NCBI GenBank assembly: GCA_964510585.1
Contig: CAZECW010000036.1
Location: 1-7,444 of the forward strand
DNA: 7,444 nucleotides
Origin: an uncultured archaeon
GTDB lineage: Archaea > Asgardarchaeota > Jordiarchaeia > Jordiarchaeales > Jordiarchaeaceae
Direction of reading: 5' to 3'
Below, one piece after another: positions 1,011 through 7,444 of the stretch (position 1 is its first letter; the number at the start of each line of letters is the position of its first letter). Made by a program: the position numbers and the translations under genes. The notes beneath the pieces were generated by a model. The model was not told the origin of the DNA. It searched no databases and was given only the letters and a program-made list of their open reading frames with translations.

Positions 1011-3011
1011 TTAGGTAACTTGCACCAAGCTTTCCTGTGGTTTGCCGTTTGCCTGTTCCTCTTTTTTACCATTTTTTCCGTTTAGGGGTTGTAGTCCCAG
1101 TCTTTGTTCAGCAGCTTGTAGGATAGCTCCCAGCATTTCGGAGTAGGACATTCCAGCGATTTTTGCCATTTTTGCAAGGTGGCCGTCCCAACACCATCCA
1201 GGGTTGGGGTTTACCTCGAGAAGTTTTGGGTTGCCGTTAGAGTCAAGCCTCCAGTCGAAGCGACAGTAGTCTCTGCATTCCAGTCTCTGGAAAAGTGTGA
1301 TGCACCATTTTATGATTTTACTTTTTACGTCTTCTGGTAGATCTGCGGGTATAGATTTTATGTTCCAGTAGGGAGAATCTGGTAGCCACTTGGCTTCGTA
1401 TCCACAAATTTTAGGGAGCCCCTCAGGCAGCGAAGAGTAGTCCTCCTCGGTGATGGGAAGCACTGTGTAAGATTCTGGGGGGTTACCAATTATGCCTACA
1501 CTAAGATCTTTACCGGGTAGAAATTCTTCGACTAGGATGGGCCTGTTGTATCCAAATTTTTCACGTATCTCGGAAATTGCATTGATGAGTTCTTCGGGGT
1601 TGTTTACAACACATCTCTGTGTGATGCCGAAGCTTGAGTCACCAAAGTTTGGCTTCACCAGAGCTGGGAAGACGAAGGTCAAGTCGAATATGGAGTCCTC
1701 GGGTTTAACGAAGACTGCTTTGGGAACTGGGATTCCCATCTCATTAGCTATACCTCGCACAAGGGACTTGTCGTAACAATGCGCAAGACACTGGGGTCCG
1801 GAGCCGGTGTAGGGTATGCCTAGCTCCTCTAACAGAGCGGGAATATGTAACTCTTTTCTTGGGTCGTTAAAGAACCCCTCATCGCACAGGTTGAAGACGT
1901 AGTCTATCTTGCCCCTAAGTTTCATTAGATCTTGGATGAGGGTGTCGTGGTTATGCAAGTATGTGAAGTTGTAACCTTTTAGTTCTCTGAGAGCGTCCTT
2001 CATTTGGTCTATCGTGTAGAAGTCGTCGTCGTCAAATCTTGCTCCCGGTTTGAGGCGGTCTGGCTTTGAAGGGTCACCTGTTATTACTACTACTTCTCTC
2101 AGCTCCTCTTTGGGCCTTTTCTTAATGGGTGTCCACTCTTTTCTGACAACACCAGTAACTATGATACGTCTCTCCATCATACCTAGATCTTGGTTACGCT
2201 GAGAGGAGGAAGCAATTTCAGTGTGTATTGTGACATCACTTAATCCCGCCTGTTGTAGGATGTTGGTTATGCTTTCTCTAGTATATAGTCTTTCGGCGTA
2301 GAATTGGTCAGCTATCGTGCCTTTTTCTACGTTGTTGATTATTTCGCGGGTTATGAGACGTTGGCCGTCGGCGGAAATGGAGCGTTCCCTGCATACGAAG
2401 TGTTTTTTGTCTATCCACTCCCATGAGCGGGGCTGATAGTGTTTCTTCAAGTATTCTCCGTCAGCGACATCTATGAGTAGTTTGCCCCAGGGTTTAAGTA
2501 CTCTGAAGGCCTCTTTGAGTACTCTAATGTCGTCCTGAACTGTTTCAAAATAGCCGAAACTGTTTCCTAGAATCATAACCACATCGAAGGTATCTGGTGC
2601 ATACGGCAGTTTTCGAGCATCGCCTTCCCTGAATCGAACGTTCAAGCCTTCCTTTTTAGCTTGCGTCTTCGCCTTTTGAATTAGGTAGTGGGAGCGGTCC
2701 AACCCTTCAACATTCTTGAAACCTCTTCTCGCCAGTTCTAGAGAGTGGCGCCCTTGTCCACAGCAACAGTCCAGAATTTTATCGTCTGGTTGAAGATTCA
2801 GAATTGAAGAGAAGAGATCCACCTCTTCTCGGGTGATTTTCTGGTCGTCTACTACATCCCCATCAGTTTTTAAATAGAGGGAGTTAAAAATACGACGCCA
2901 CCAATCGGGAGGAACATACTGCTCCAGATCATCGAGAGGCCCTAGAACTTTTAGTTGAGACTTACCATTTTTCCCCCGCGAGGGGGGTTTATCCCCTGCC
3001 TTTTCAGTCAT
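1011..3011 (-). CDS. Fusion protein: N-terminal class I SAM-dependent methyltransferase plus C-terminal D-Ala-D-Ala-ligase-like ATP-grasp domain, 666 aa
   Basis: Methyltransferase motif I ILDCCCGQGRHS, GLDRS, FREGDAR, LGNSFGYF, VLKPWGKLLID. ATP-grasp motifs HIPALLEELGIPYTGS, DK, LVKPNFGDSSFGI, LVEEFLPG, CRFDWRLD, LEVNPNPG. SD-like GAGGCG on - upstream of ATG 3011. Confidence 0.9.
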   Translation of the reverse strand: MTEKAGDKPPSRGKNGKSQLKVLGPLDDLEQYVPPDWWRRIFNSLYLKTDGDVVDDQKITREEVDLFSSILNLQPDDKILDCCCGQGRHSLELARRGFKNVEGLDRSHYLIQKAKTQAKKEGLNVRFREGDARKLPYAPDTFDVVMILGNSFGYFETVQDDIRVLKEAFRVLKPWGKLLIDVADGEYLKKHYQPRSWEWIDKKHFVCRERSISADGQRLITREIINNVEKGTIADQFYAERLYTRESITNILQQAGLSDVTIHTEIASSSQRNQDLGMMERRIIVTGVVRKEWTPIKKRPKEELREVVVITGDPSKPDRLKPGARFDDDDFYTIDQMKDALRELKGYNFTYLHNHDTLIQDLMKLRGKIDYVFNLCDEGFFNDPRKELHIPALLEELGIPYTGSGPQCLAHCYDKSLVRGIANEMGIPVPKAVFVKPEDSIFDLTFVFPALVKPNFGDSSFGITQRCVVNNPEELINAISEIREKFGYNRPILVEEFLPGKDLSVGIIGNPPESYTVLPITEEDYSSLPEGLPKICGYEAKWLPDSPYWNIKSIPADLPEDVKSKIIKWCITLFQRLECRDYCRFDWRLDSNGNPKLLEVNPNPGWCWDGHLAKMAKIAGMSYSEMLGAILQAAEQRLGLQPLNGKNGKKEEQANGKPQESLVQVT

Positions 3012-3466: not shown

Positions 3467-3704
3467 AAAAGGAGGACTGAGGAGGCTTAGGCAGGTTTAC
3501 AAGACCGTATAGCGAGGTTGACTTAATATGTGGGTGGTTGTGATTGCAAAATTTGGGTCACTAAAAGCCTTTCAGAGTAAGGTGGCTGGAATTTTGGTCA
3601 GCGGGTTTATTTTTTGTGTGCAGGAATATCCAATGGTAGAAACATTTTTTTATTTTCACATGCTTCTATTCAATCATAACTGGGGATGAATGCAGATTCA
3701 CACA

Positions 3705-3710
3705 AGGAGG
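3705..3710 (+). promoter_or_regulatory. Shine-Dalgarno site of the Cys-rich microprotein
   Basis: AGGAGG at 3705-3710, 9 nt before TTG 3720 and 3 nt before GTG 3714. Confidence 0.7.
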
Positions 3711-3719
3711 AATGTGTTT

Positions 3720-3851
3720 TTGTGGGAAGAATTGCCTATTTGTGAAAATTGTGGCAAGTTTATAGACGACTGTGATTGTAAATGCCCCTACTGTGGCGAA
3801 GCTGCGGATTGCCACTGCTGTGTGGGAAGAGAAGCTACAACTGGCGGATGA
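3720..3851 (+). CDS. Small Cys-rich CPxCG-type metal-binding protein, 43 aa, C-terminal Gly-Gly (not in ORF track)
   Basis: Manual translation: MWEELPICENCGKFIDDCDCKCPYCGEAADCHCCVGREATTGG*. Nine Cys, two CxxCG knuckles, strong SD. Alternative in-frame starts GTG 3714 and ATG 3690; stop TGA 3849-3851. Confidence 0.85.
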   Translation: MWEELPICENCGKFIDDCDCKCPYCGEAADCHCCVGREATTGG

Positions 3852-3896
3852 TACCCCAAAACCAAATCAAATAGAATTCTTTGGTGATGACACGAA

Positions 3897-5834
3897 TTGT
3901 TGAGAGAAGATTTTGTATGGATGGCTGGCGGGCCTCAGGGCAGTGGTGTTGATTCGGGCACTAACATATTTGCCCGTGCTTGTTGCTATGGAGGGCTTCA
4001 CGTATACGGAAAAAGAGAGTACCACTCCAACATTAAAGGGCTACACAGCTATTTCCAAGTCAGAGTTTCGCCTAAAGAAATTCAGGCTGATGTGGATCGT
4101 GTTGATTTGCTTGCTGCATTCGACGCAGAAACCGTAGTGAGACATATATGGGAAGTTTCCCCAGGCGGGGGAATAATTGTCGATGCGGAAACACTAGAAA
4201 CCAAAATTGACGAAATCAAAACTTTAACCTCGAATTTCAAAGCCGATTTTCAAAAAACTCTGGAAAACAGGGGAGTTAAGGCAGAGACCCTAGACGACCT
4301 GCTAAAAGCAGCAAAAAAGGAAAATAACATTAAAGTTTATGCTATACCCTACACCGATGTTCTAAGAGAGGTTGCAGAGGAGATTCACGAGGAGAAACTA
4401 AGCCGATTGACACGAATGATAAACGTATTAACCCTTGGGGTTTCCCTAGCCCTAGTCAACTATGATAGGGAGCCAGTTGAAAGAGCCATCAAAACCATTT
4501 TCGGCGAAAAAAACAAAATTGTTCAAATGAACATTGTAGCCTTTGACAAATCTTACCAGTATGCGAGGAGAACCTTTGGGGACGATTTCGGCTACAAACT
4601 AAAAACAATCCCCACAGAGGAAAAGAGAATATTCCTGCAGGGAACACAAGCCGTAGCCCTAGGAAAACTAGTCGGAGGCTGCAGATTCCAGTCCTATTAC
4701 CCAATAACCCCCGCAGCCGACGAAAGCGAATACCTAGAAGAAAACGAAATACTAGAGATAATAGGAGACAAGAACCCTGGCTCCATACTTGTAATGCAGA
4801 CAGAGGATGAAATAGCAGCCATCAACATGGCCATCGGCGCGGCTTTAACTGGTGTTAGAGCCGCGACAAGCACCTCTGGACCCGGGTTCTCATTAATGGT
4901 GGAAGGCTTGGGGTGGGCGGGAAACAATGAGGTGCCAGTAGTAGTAAACTATTATCAGCGTGGTGCACCATCCACAGGTCTGCCCACCCGTCATGGGCAA
5001 GCGGATCTGAGATTTGCGATGCACGCTTCTCATGGGGAGTTTCCCAGAATAGTTTTGTGTTCTGGCGACATACAAGAGTGCTTCTATGATGCGGTTAGAG
5101 CCTTCAATTATGCTGAGCGTTACCAGATGCCTGTTATCCACCTAATAGATAAGGCCTTAGCTAACAGCAGTAAATCTTACAAAATGTTTGACCTCAACCA
5201 GATTAGGATAGAACGCGGCCAACTGCTAAGCGATAAGGATGTTGAGGGCGAGGAGTATTTGAGATTTAGATTCACGGAGTCCGGATTGTCCCCTAGAGCG
5301 CCTCTGGGGACGCCCAACATTGTTTTCTGGAATTCGGGGGATGAGCACGACCAGCTTGGCCACATAAATGAAGAGTCTACCAATAGAACCTTGATGCTGG
5401 AAAAAAGGATGAAGAAACTGGACTTGGCAGATAGGGAGATACCGGTGGAGGAAAGGGTTAACTTTTTTGGAGATGAGGAGGCTCCTCACACTATTGTGAG
5501 TTGGGGCTCACCTAAGGGTGCAGTAATTGAAGCTCTGGAGAGAATTTTGGGAGAAGGTTACGAAATGAACTTCATACAGGTGCGTATGCCTCTGCCTCTA
5601 CCCAAAGATTACTTAGCTGAGAAACTGGGAAAGGCTGAGAAGAAAATTGTTGTTGAAGGTAACTATATGGCACAGTTAGCGGGAGTAATTCGGGAGCAAA
5701 CCGGCATAGACATGGACTATTTCGTACTAAAGTGGAATGGCCGACCAATATCCTCAGACGAGGTTTATGATGCGCTTAAATTGATTATGGAGGAAAAGGC
5801 TCCAAGGAGGCAGGTGTTGAACCGTGGTTCTTAA
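3897..5834 (+). CDS. korA: 2-oxoacid:ferredoxin oxidoreductase subunit alpha (fused gamma-alpha), 645 aa
   Basis: N-terminal gamma domain GGPQGSGVD...SNIKG; [38 protein letters not shown] motifs; SD GGTGAT at 3883-3888 before TTG 3897. Substrate specificity not determinable from sequence. Confidence 0.95.
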
Positions 5835-6792
5835 AGCAGCAGATTATAAAAGCACATACTTTGCAGATTGGTGTCCGGGATGCGGAAACTTTGGAATACT
5901 TTCAGCCATGCAAATGGCGCTTGCAGAACTACAATTACCACGCCACAAGACAGCCATATTCACAGGAATAGGGTGCAGCGGTAAAATGGCCCAGTGCCTC
6001 AACATCAACGGAATCCATGTACTACACGGCAGAGCACTGCCCTACGCCATTGGAGCAAAATTAGCTAACCCTGAACTGGAAGTGATAGCAGAGGGTGGAG
6101 ACGGAGACGGCCTCGGAATAGGGGTAGGCCACTTTGTGAGCGCCGGAAGAAGAAACATAGACATAACATACATTATCCATGACAATGGAGTCTACGGACT
6201 AACTAAGGGACAGGCGTCTCCCACCCTTGAACTGGGACTGCAAACCAAATCTTTGCCCAAACCCAACATAAACGCAGCCATTAACGCAATCGCCATAGCT
6301 CTGGCAGCGGGTTACACATTTATCGCCCGGGGATACGCCTACGATGTCCGCCACCTAAAAGAAATGATAAAGAGAGGAATTCAACACAGAGGACTAGCCC
6401 TAATAATTGTTCAACAACCATGCCCAACATACAATAACATCAACACAAAGGAGTGGTACGGAGGAGAAGACCGCATAGACCCCAAAACCGGAAAGCCAAC
6501 TCCCAGACTGTACAAGCTTGAAGAAACTGGCTACGATGGAGTAGTCCACAGCCCAGACGAGACCTTCGAAAAGCAAATGGCTGCTCTAACCAAGGCTCGA
6601 GAGTGGGGCGACAAAATACCCATAGGTGTATTCTACCAGAACGAGTTTGAACCCACCTACCAAGACAGGATAGTCAAAAGAATACCAAACTACTTACAAA
6701 ATCCACCAGCCAAACAACCAATAAGCGACTTACAAGGCAGAGCAACCACAAACATCACAGCCTTGCTAGAGAAACTCAAGGTCACAGGTTAA
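5824..6792 (+). CDS. korB: 2-oxoacid:ferredoxin oxidoreductase subunit beta (TPP-binding), 322 aa
   Basis: [19 protein letters not shown]/Mg motif GGDGDG...[17 protein letters not shown]; GTG start overlaps korA end by 11 nt (translational coupling). Confidence 0.95.

Positions 6793-6974: not shown

Positions 6975-7444
<470 letters not shown>

Follow-up and report, generated by a model that had tools for sequence, protein, structure and literature searches.

Here we show, by comparative sequence analysis, that a cysteine-rich open reading frame of 43 residues at the head of an archaeal korA-korB operon is a real gene of a widespread, unnamed archaeal family. It lies in a stretch of 7,444 nucleotides from an uncultured archaeon of the Jordarchaeia, referred to below, at its full length, as the window. 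The family has conserved cysteines and a conserved C-terminal Gly-Gly, its gene is linked to korAB in an operon-like arrangement, and it co-occurs with a single branch of KorA and with an insertion in KorB. We tentatively propose that the microprotein is a metal-binding partner, or third subunit, of this clade of 2-oxoacid:ferredoxin oxidoreductases (OFORs); on sequence grounds, the 'two-subunit' OFORs of this clade probably have an undescribed small metal-binding partner.

Background

Two-subunit OFORs are regarded as the simplest members of an enzyme family of central carbon metabolism, and the characterised OFORs of Sulfolobus function as alpha-beta alone. In the two-subunit enzymes the space between domains III and VI, beside their sole cluster, forms an open pocket, which in other OFORs is occupied by domain V or by an external ferredoxin (PMC5020499). 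A review of PFOR and OFOR enzymes from November 2026 describes one-, two-, four-, and five-subunit forms alone and no polypeptide of the kind reported here (PMC13768988), and our literature searches found no description of such an OFOR subunit. In the present study a large clade of OFORs, found in Bathyarchaeia, Methanoperedens, and the Asgard Jordarchaeia as well as on a contig with amoA whose host is presumably an ammonia oxidiser, is almost always accompanied by a conserved 40-residue cysteine-rich gene and by a matching loop near the iron-sulfur cluster.

The microprotein gene in the window

The gene occupies positions 3720 to 3851 of the forward strand and encodes (M/L)WEELPICENCGKFIDDCDCKCPYCGEAADCHCCVGREATTGG*, that is 43 codons followed by TGA, with nine cysteines and a TTGG end. 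Its cysteine pattern, CxxCG-x5-CxCxCPxCG-x4-CxCC-x5-TTGG, combines zinc-ribbon-like CxxCG...CPYCG knuckles, interleaved CxC...CxC(C) cysteines, and a flexible TTGG tail. A Shine-Dalgarno sequence, AAGGAGG (3704 to 3710, forward strand), stands 9 nt before the TTG start; the region containing it, AGGAGGAA, is invariant in five members of the genus, and the 9-nt distance to TTG is the same in the window and in the divergent genome G001. Since the TTG start and its 9-nt spacing after AGGAGG are retained in the homologue of the most divergent congener (53% identical), and an in-frame ATG at 3690 upstream of the TTG is not conserved, 43 residues is the right length. Further upstream, a purine-rich, BRE-like GAAACA followed by a T/A-rich, TATA-like run (about 3638 to 3657, forward strand) is kept in all five genus members, G001 included, and on the strength of this conservation is a putative archaeal promoter of the microprotein gene.

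The spacer between the microprotein gene and korA measures 45 nt (3852 to 3896, forward strand) and carries an SD-like GGTGATG at 3883 to 3889; neither a terminator-like hairpin nor a long T run was found in this gap before the korA start (TTG, 3897). The operon-like arrangement suggests that the microprotein is transcribed together with KorA and KorB. The nine-cysteine pattern, the TTGG end, the Shine-Dalgarno sequence, and the 45-nt gap lacking a long T run, all described in a first-pass annotation of this DNA, are thus confirmed in the sequence. The microprotein frame and korA also share a reading frame, with three TGA codons between them (3849, 3885, and 3888; window 3849-3899). This shared frame looks accidental, and programmed read-through into korA is ruled out by a 1-nt indel that alters the frame relation in a 98%-identical relative.

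Selection on the gene and spread of the family

Homologues within the genus matched at E-values of 1e-12 to 1e-28, well outside what chance would give, and the gene was found in four of five congeners, one copy being merely 53% identical yet intact in all cysteines and in the TGG end. Pairwise comparison of 92 operons (1660 pairs) gave a median dN/dS of 0.14. The terminal glycines are encoded by GGC, GGA, GGG, and GGT alike, and all three stop codons occur, which together with the dN/dS value indicates selection on the protein rather than on a DNA motif. The possibility that the frame is not a gene was ruled out by the dN/dS value and by how widely the family occurs.

A pattern scan covering 185,579 species genomes left 125 confirmed relatives, whose hosts include Jordarchaeia/Freyarchaeota (the group of the window), many Bathyarchaeia, and Methanoperedens; the few found in records labelled bacterial are taken as mis-binned contigs. 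A metagenome scan confirmed at least 454 relatives, and 1.84 billion representative proteins, searched exhaustively with HMMER, yielded approximately 55 full-length small proteins, such that the homologues on which the first-pass annotation had made its reading depend number in the hundreds. The contig of one divergent member also carries a fragment of an archaeal amoA gene, pointing to an ammonia-oxidising host. Gene callers do predict relatives of the microprotein, which the sources name 'hypothetical protein' or leave without a name; its neighbours in the ESM Atlas are likewise unnamed 'hypothetical protein' clusters, and HVO_2753_ZBP is found among its language-model neighbours.

Family anatomy and profile searches

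The core of the family reads CxxC(G)-x6-CxCxC(P)(Y/F)C(G)(E)-x3/4-CxC-x5/6-(A/V)(T/S)GG. Among 48 diverse members seven cysteines are invariant, as are the two terminal glycines that the first-pass annotation had singled out; an eighth cysteine is at least 90% conserved and the Thr preceding the GG about 90%. The ninth cysteine of the window's protein (the second C of CxCC) is not conserved, being replaced by A or V in many members, and is specific to a subfamily. Of the five extra cysteines initially counted beside the knuckles, extra cysteines do exist, but with seven invariant and one nearly so they are really three or four. C-terminal endings vary beyond the GG, many members ending in GGG and a few in GGD or GGE. 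The domain always stands at the extreme C-terminus, even in N-terminally extended forms of 130 aa, and the longer proteins include solely such extended versions and no genuine fusion to KorA or KorB. Two KorA chimeras (P0100 and P0129) are likely assembly or frameshift artefacts, and were rejected as fusions.

Scans of Pfam and NCBIfam assigned the microprotein to no family, and a profile search against all PDB sequences gave no match at E up to 1. Zn_ribbon_3 (PF13248) aligned to the window's protein with 16.6 bits (E 0.0052), below its gathering threshold of 27 bits, and to 17 of the 48 members at E up to 1 (best 2.6e-5); these sub-threshold matches are in line with the zinc-ribbon or rubredoxin-like knuckles recognised at the outset. 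The two CxxC knuckles, C8-x2-C11 and C22-x2-C25, are invariant in the family, and their separation of 10 residues agrees with the spacing of approximately 10-20 residues in zinc ribbons, as opposed to approximately 29, around an aromatic core, in rubredoxin (PF00301), to which no Pfam match was found even at E up to 1. With respect to the OFOR delta subunit and its two [4Fe-4S] clusters, the microprotein has no CxxCxxCxxxCP motifs and no match to Fer4 or PorD/KorD. It shares the conserved C-terminal Gly-Gly of the ThiS, MoaD, and SAMP carriers, but its 40-residue core has no match to ThiS/MoaD in Pfam and no regular secondary structure in the predicted model. The AlphaFold2 monomer, built from a 48-row alignment, was a poor model, with a pLDDT of just 64.7 and a disordered tail.

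The associated oxidoreductase and other genes of the window

Downstream of the microprotein gene, korA (3897..5834, forward strand) encodes the fused gamma and alpha subunit (domains III-I-II) of a two-subunit 2-oxoacid:ferredoxin oxidoreductase, with Pfam POR and POR_N domains and a score of 840.6 bits against the NCBIfam equivalog NF041170 (cut-off 800). It is overlapped by 11 nt by korB (5824..6792, forward strand), encoding the beta subunit with TPP and a single [4Fe-4S] cluster, which scored 442.2 bits against NF041171 (cut-off 423) and matched the beta subunit of the Sulfolobus tokodaii OFOR (5B46_B) at E 1.5e-113. In the alignment, the KorB cluster ligands C17, C20, C51, and C200 correspond to C12, C15, C46, and C197 of 5B46_B. 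KorB also contains a clade-specific insertion of 12 residues (215-226; 6466..6501, forward strand), located 14 residues after the fourth cluster ligand, which is conserved in 47 of 47 KorB sequences linked to the microprotein and absent from 19 of 19 KorB sequences lacking it, as well as from 5B46/5B48.

A maximum likelihood tree of KorA placed the 47 linked sequences in one branch, apart from 20 unlinked sequences, with a support of 100/99. Within the linked branch the Jordarchaeia group with Methanoperedens and with unassigned metagenome sequences. In a scan of 400 Asgard genomes the full-length family was confined to the genus of the window, other matches being generic zinc-ribbon matches to positions 5-28; as this is the sole Asgard genus in that sample with the gene, the three-gene unit was probably acquired horizontally by the Jordarchaeia. 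Residues C29, C262, and C395 of KorA (nt 3981-3983, 4680-4682, and 5079-5081) are 98-100% conserved in linked sequences and are L, L, and A, respectively, in unlinked ones; judged from this pattern, they may lie at an interface or take part in sharing a metal.

Convergent with the operon, a gene on the reverse strand (6975..7388) encodes a dicluster ferredoxin similar to zinc-containing ferredoxin (Pfam Fer4 families; NF041165 below cut-off), and a dicluster ferredoxin gene adjoins the operon in Methanoperedens loci as well. It is likely the electron acceptor of the OFOR. The ferredoxin frame has an N-terminal extension of approximately 60 residues before its two Fer4 motifs, and its start is uncertain. 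On the other side, divergent from the operon, lies a gene for a fusion of 666 aa joining a SAM methyltransferase to an ATP-grasp domain resembling D-Ala-D-Ala ligase (1011-3011, reverse strand), which is 97-98% identical in congeners and stands beside the microprotein gene in the genus of the window only. A WrbA-like flavodoxin is encoded at 313-945.

Linkage to korAB and its exceptions

In about 90% of its copies the microprotein gene precedes korA-korB in the same orientation, at a distance of 3-83 nt. The distance is 31-74 nt, again on one strand, in almost all of 78 genome loci; of a further 86 loci (80 taken from the metagenome scan, 6 obtained by protein look-up), korA follows directly in 74, a contig edge intervenes in 5, and 7 are exceptions. 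Even among divergent representatives (40-55% identity) 7 of 10 are directly upstream of korA, in one case with a gap of 3 nt. The synteny with korAB that the first-pass annotation had made a test of OFOR partnership therefore holds in several lineages of archaea. Of 301 sampled Thermoproteota genomes, 194 have the OFOR type and 57 the microprotein; all 57 have this type of OFOR, mostly adjacent, leaving about 137 of the 194 without the microprotein; none of the Sulfolobus-type loci sampled has the gene. The genome from which the window derives has other OFOR genes, of the four-subunit type, and the microprotein is encoded at this operon only.

Exceptions to the linkage take several forms. In a high-GC subfamily (P0036; L127:4736-7277) 140 nt separate the gene from a molybdopterin oxidoreductase gene downstream, after which come FdhD and a MobA-like gene, and the protein retains all cysteines and an ATGG end. 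At four loci (L132, L155, L174, and L177) a LigD_N phosphoesterase gene comes directly after the microprotein gene; because the LigD_N gene is elsewhere found downstream of korB (17 loci), a deletion of korAB, or a relocated paralogue, is suggested for these four. One unlinked copy lies inside a sugar-modification cluster. A second paralogue, '...LPHCHCxCPYCGERDxCECALFDAATGG', is not beside korAB and is often near Lrp/AsnC regulator genes (L243-L247, L249, and L250, in genomes G623, G605, G701, G494, G422, G518, and G629); its hosts are mostly low-GC Thermoproteota (0.25-0.36, one 0.56), possibly ammonia oxidisers. Because every unlinked copy retains the TGG end, whatever the tail does may not be specific to the OFOR.

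Two further gene associations were observed. A gene for a protein with tandem ferritin-like/rubrerythrin domains (approximately 328 aa; for example L082:2399-3526(+)) precedes the microprotein gene by approximately 165 nt, in the same orientation, at 86 of 169 loci, most of them from Bathyarchaeia. At 6 of 20 sampled Thermoproteota OFOR loci without the microprotein, a different frame of approximately 100 aa stands directly upstream of korA (L228:3048-3350(-), L231:535-834(+), L232:475-789(+), L229, L234, and L237). It combines a CxxC...GYC...C pattern, a finger of C2H2-like type ('YCxTC...EL.EH'), and an acidic tail with (A/S)PxxD at its end, and has no Pfam family. Small zinc-finger-like proteins linked to OFORs thus form a second family here.

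Proposed role and alternative explanations

From the conservation and gene order described above, we infer that the protein binds metal and associates physically with the enzyme, as well as where it docks and what its tail does. The product would be a metal-binding protein of approximately 40 residues in which the CxxCG and CPYCG knuckles form one Cys4 site and the interleaved CxC...CxC cysteines may form a second, the metal being Zn or Fe/Fe-S. Made from the KorA/KorB transcript, it would act as a dedicated partner of the enzyme, most likely a small third subunit. It might dock on the KorA/KorB surface around the domain V pocket, beside the single [4Fe-4S] cluster and the clade-specific KorB loop, and from there could relay electrons to ferredoxin, gate their transfer, or shield it. 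The TGG carboxy-terminus, which is invariant, flexible, and free of side chains, might reach into a narrow site on the partner.

A complex of KorA 9-645, KorB 6-322, two Zn, and the microprotein, modelled with a 47-row alignment for each protein chain, lends weak support to binding as such: the prediction score was 0.42 (runs of 0.42, 0.00, and 0.45), compared with 0.01 for the best control, and fell to 0.00 once KorA was replaced. Contact agreement in these runs was at least 0% and the pLDDT of the partner at least 48. The mark set on this score was passed by 58 of 80 solved complexes and 2 of 110 mismatched pairs, and the passes at scores of 0.60 or below comprised just 7 of the 80 solved complexes and both mismatches. 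Given that Sulfolobus OFORs work as alpha-beta and that about 137 OFOR-bearing Thermoproteota genomes do without the gene, the microprotein is not needed for core catalysis; confidence in a strictly OFOR-bound role is limited chiefly by the unlinked paralogues that retain the TGG end.

Several other readings of the family have to be weighed against a dedicated OFOR partner. The microprotein might be a free, dissociable mini redox carrier, bearing a rubredoxin-like Fe(Cys)4 and/or a small Fe-S centre on its CxC pairs, that would swap electrons with the OFOR and, in the form of paralogues, with other oxidoreductases while not being stably bound. The CxxCG/CPxCG knuckles are a rubredoxin/zinc-ribbon signature, as the sub-threshold Zn_ribbon_3 matches also indicate, stand-alone paralogues exist, some members lie upstream of the molybdopterin oxidoreductase, and the weak, run-dependent docking of the models would suit a transient complex. 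However, a cognate dicluster ferredoxin gene is already present beside the operon, here and in Methanoperedens, the motif spacing fits no known ferredoxin or rubredoxin family (with no match in Pfam or PDB), and the invariant GG end and the co-varying KorB insertion are left unexplained, such that we regard a carrier of this kind as unlikely, though worth serious attention. Regulation is a more doubtful proposition still, whether by a nucleic-acid-binding zinc ribbon controlling kor expression or by an upstream frame that tunes korA translation through its own translation or through termination at its ...TGG-stop end. Purifying selection extends over the whole 40-residue scaffold and not the end alone, all three stop codons are used, spacers vary from 3 to 83 nt, the domain is kept in N-terminally extended forms and in unlinked paralogues, and the basic patches typical of nucleic-acid binders are missing. 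These points outweigh the position at the head of the operon with a short spacer, which would permit coupling, the presence of a different zinc-finger-like frame of approximately 100 aa ahead of other OFOR clades, and the general observation that small archaeal zinc-finger proteins, such as Brz of Halobacterium, are often regulators.

Slightly less probable again is a maturation or protection factor, that is a metallochaperone inserting or repairing the [4Fe-4S] cluster of KorB, or a thiol-rich oxidative shield. In its favour are the ferritin-like/rubrerythrin gene upstream in 86 of the 169 loci, the position of the KorB insertion adjoining a cluster ligand, and the precedent of the PFOR of D. 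africanus, whose domain VII protects its cluster via a disulfide (PMC13768988). Yet the ferritin-like neighbour is limited to some lineages, no Fe-S assembly genes recur among the commonest neighbour gene clusters, and the clade includes lineages known to be strictly anaerobic as well as the amoA-bearing contig, whose host is presumably an aerobic ammonia oxidiser. A conserved Gly-Gly end also invites comparison with proteins in which the terminal glycine is adenylated and then thiocarboxylated or ligated, as in ThiS, MoaD, and SAMP. If the TGG carboxylate were used chemically in this way, the family would be a new, non-beta-grasp class of C-terminal-glycine carriers or modifiers, or it might carry an intermediate for the OFOR while paralogues serve other enzymes, for instance a molybdopterin oxidoreductase. 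MoaD likewise ends in TGG. The GG is invariant, the Thr before it nearly so, and the domain always extreme C-terminal; four ThiF-family genes are present elsewhere in the host genome, and one subfamily is located beside a molybdopterin enzyme, FdhD, and a MobA-like gene. The modifier or sulfur-carrier idea of the first-pass annotation nevertheless found no support in genomic context, with no ThiF/E1-like gene in 175 loci (1.37 Mb) and neither JAMM nor rhodanese among the 12 commonest neighbour gene clusters (of which the 10 unlabelled ones were checked against Pfam). The beta-grasp body that E1 enzymes recognise is absent, no ThiS/MoaD profile matches, and the GGG, GGD, and GGE endings of some members speak against it as well; we therefore hold chemical use of the tail to be distinctly improbable. 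A RiPP precursor peptide modified by the methyltransferase/ATP-grasp fusion, an idea likewise raised early on, would draw on the adjacent, divergent position of the fusion gene (1011-3011, minus) in the window and its congeners. That neighbour is missing from every other lineage with the microprotein, and no recurrent modifying enzyme was found in 169 loci; the link is refuted as a general feature, and the restriction of the neighbour to this genus makes a modified-peptide precursor very unlikely, indeed scarcely credible.

Returning to a metal-binding partner of the OFOR, should the microprotein bind, the OFORs of this clade would be three-component systems whose electron output, oxygen tolerance, or regulation could depart from the Sulfolobus model, and results from korAB expressed on its own in a heterologous host could be misleading. 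The family would then also be a clear, testable case of a functional archaeal microprotein missing from domain databases.

Comparison with known systems

Among small proteins with a functional free C-terminus, the LysW/ArgW amino-group carriers are similar in being zinc-ribbon proteins of approximately 50 aa and, in this genus, in having an ATP-grasp ligase gene nearby. LysW has an acidic EDWGE tail and is used through its Glu side chain, whereas the microprotein ends in GG and its ATP-grasp neighbour is not conserved. ThiS, MoaD, and SAMP are likewise small proteins with a C-terminal (T)GG whose genes may stand beside a ferredoxin-dependent oxidoreductase, but the microprotein differs from them in lacking both the beta-grasp fold and a neighbouring E1/MoeB gene; MoaD genes occur beside aldehyde:ferredoxin oxidoreductase in MoaD-AOR clusters that often include MoeB (PMC1779556). 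The CPxCG zinc-finger microproteins (Haloferax HVO_2753, PF07754; Zn_ribbon_3, PF13248) are comparable in their size of 40-60 aa and in their CxxC and CPxCG knuckles, and are set apart by sub-cut-off scores, the additional interleaved CxC...CxC cysteines, the TGG tail, and the fixed link to an OFOR.

With respect to the enzyme itself, KorA and KorB of the window are of the same type as the two-subunit OFOR of Sulfolobus tokodaii (5B46/5B47/5B48), with conserved cluster ligands, although the solved S. tokodaii enzyme has neither a third polypeptide nor the 12-residue KorB loop. Compared with the OFOR delta subunit or domain V (PorD/KorD, TIGR02179), the microprotein is half the size, lacks CxxCxxCxxxCP, shows no sequence similarity, and has an invariant GG end. 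Like delta, however, it is a small cysteine-rich polypeptide encoded with the catalytic subunits, and it would be expected to sit between the proximal cluster and the external ferredoxin, in the pocket left unfilled in two-subunit enzymes (PMC5020499).
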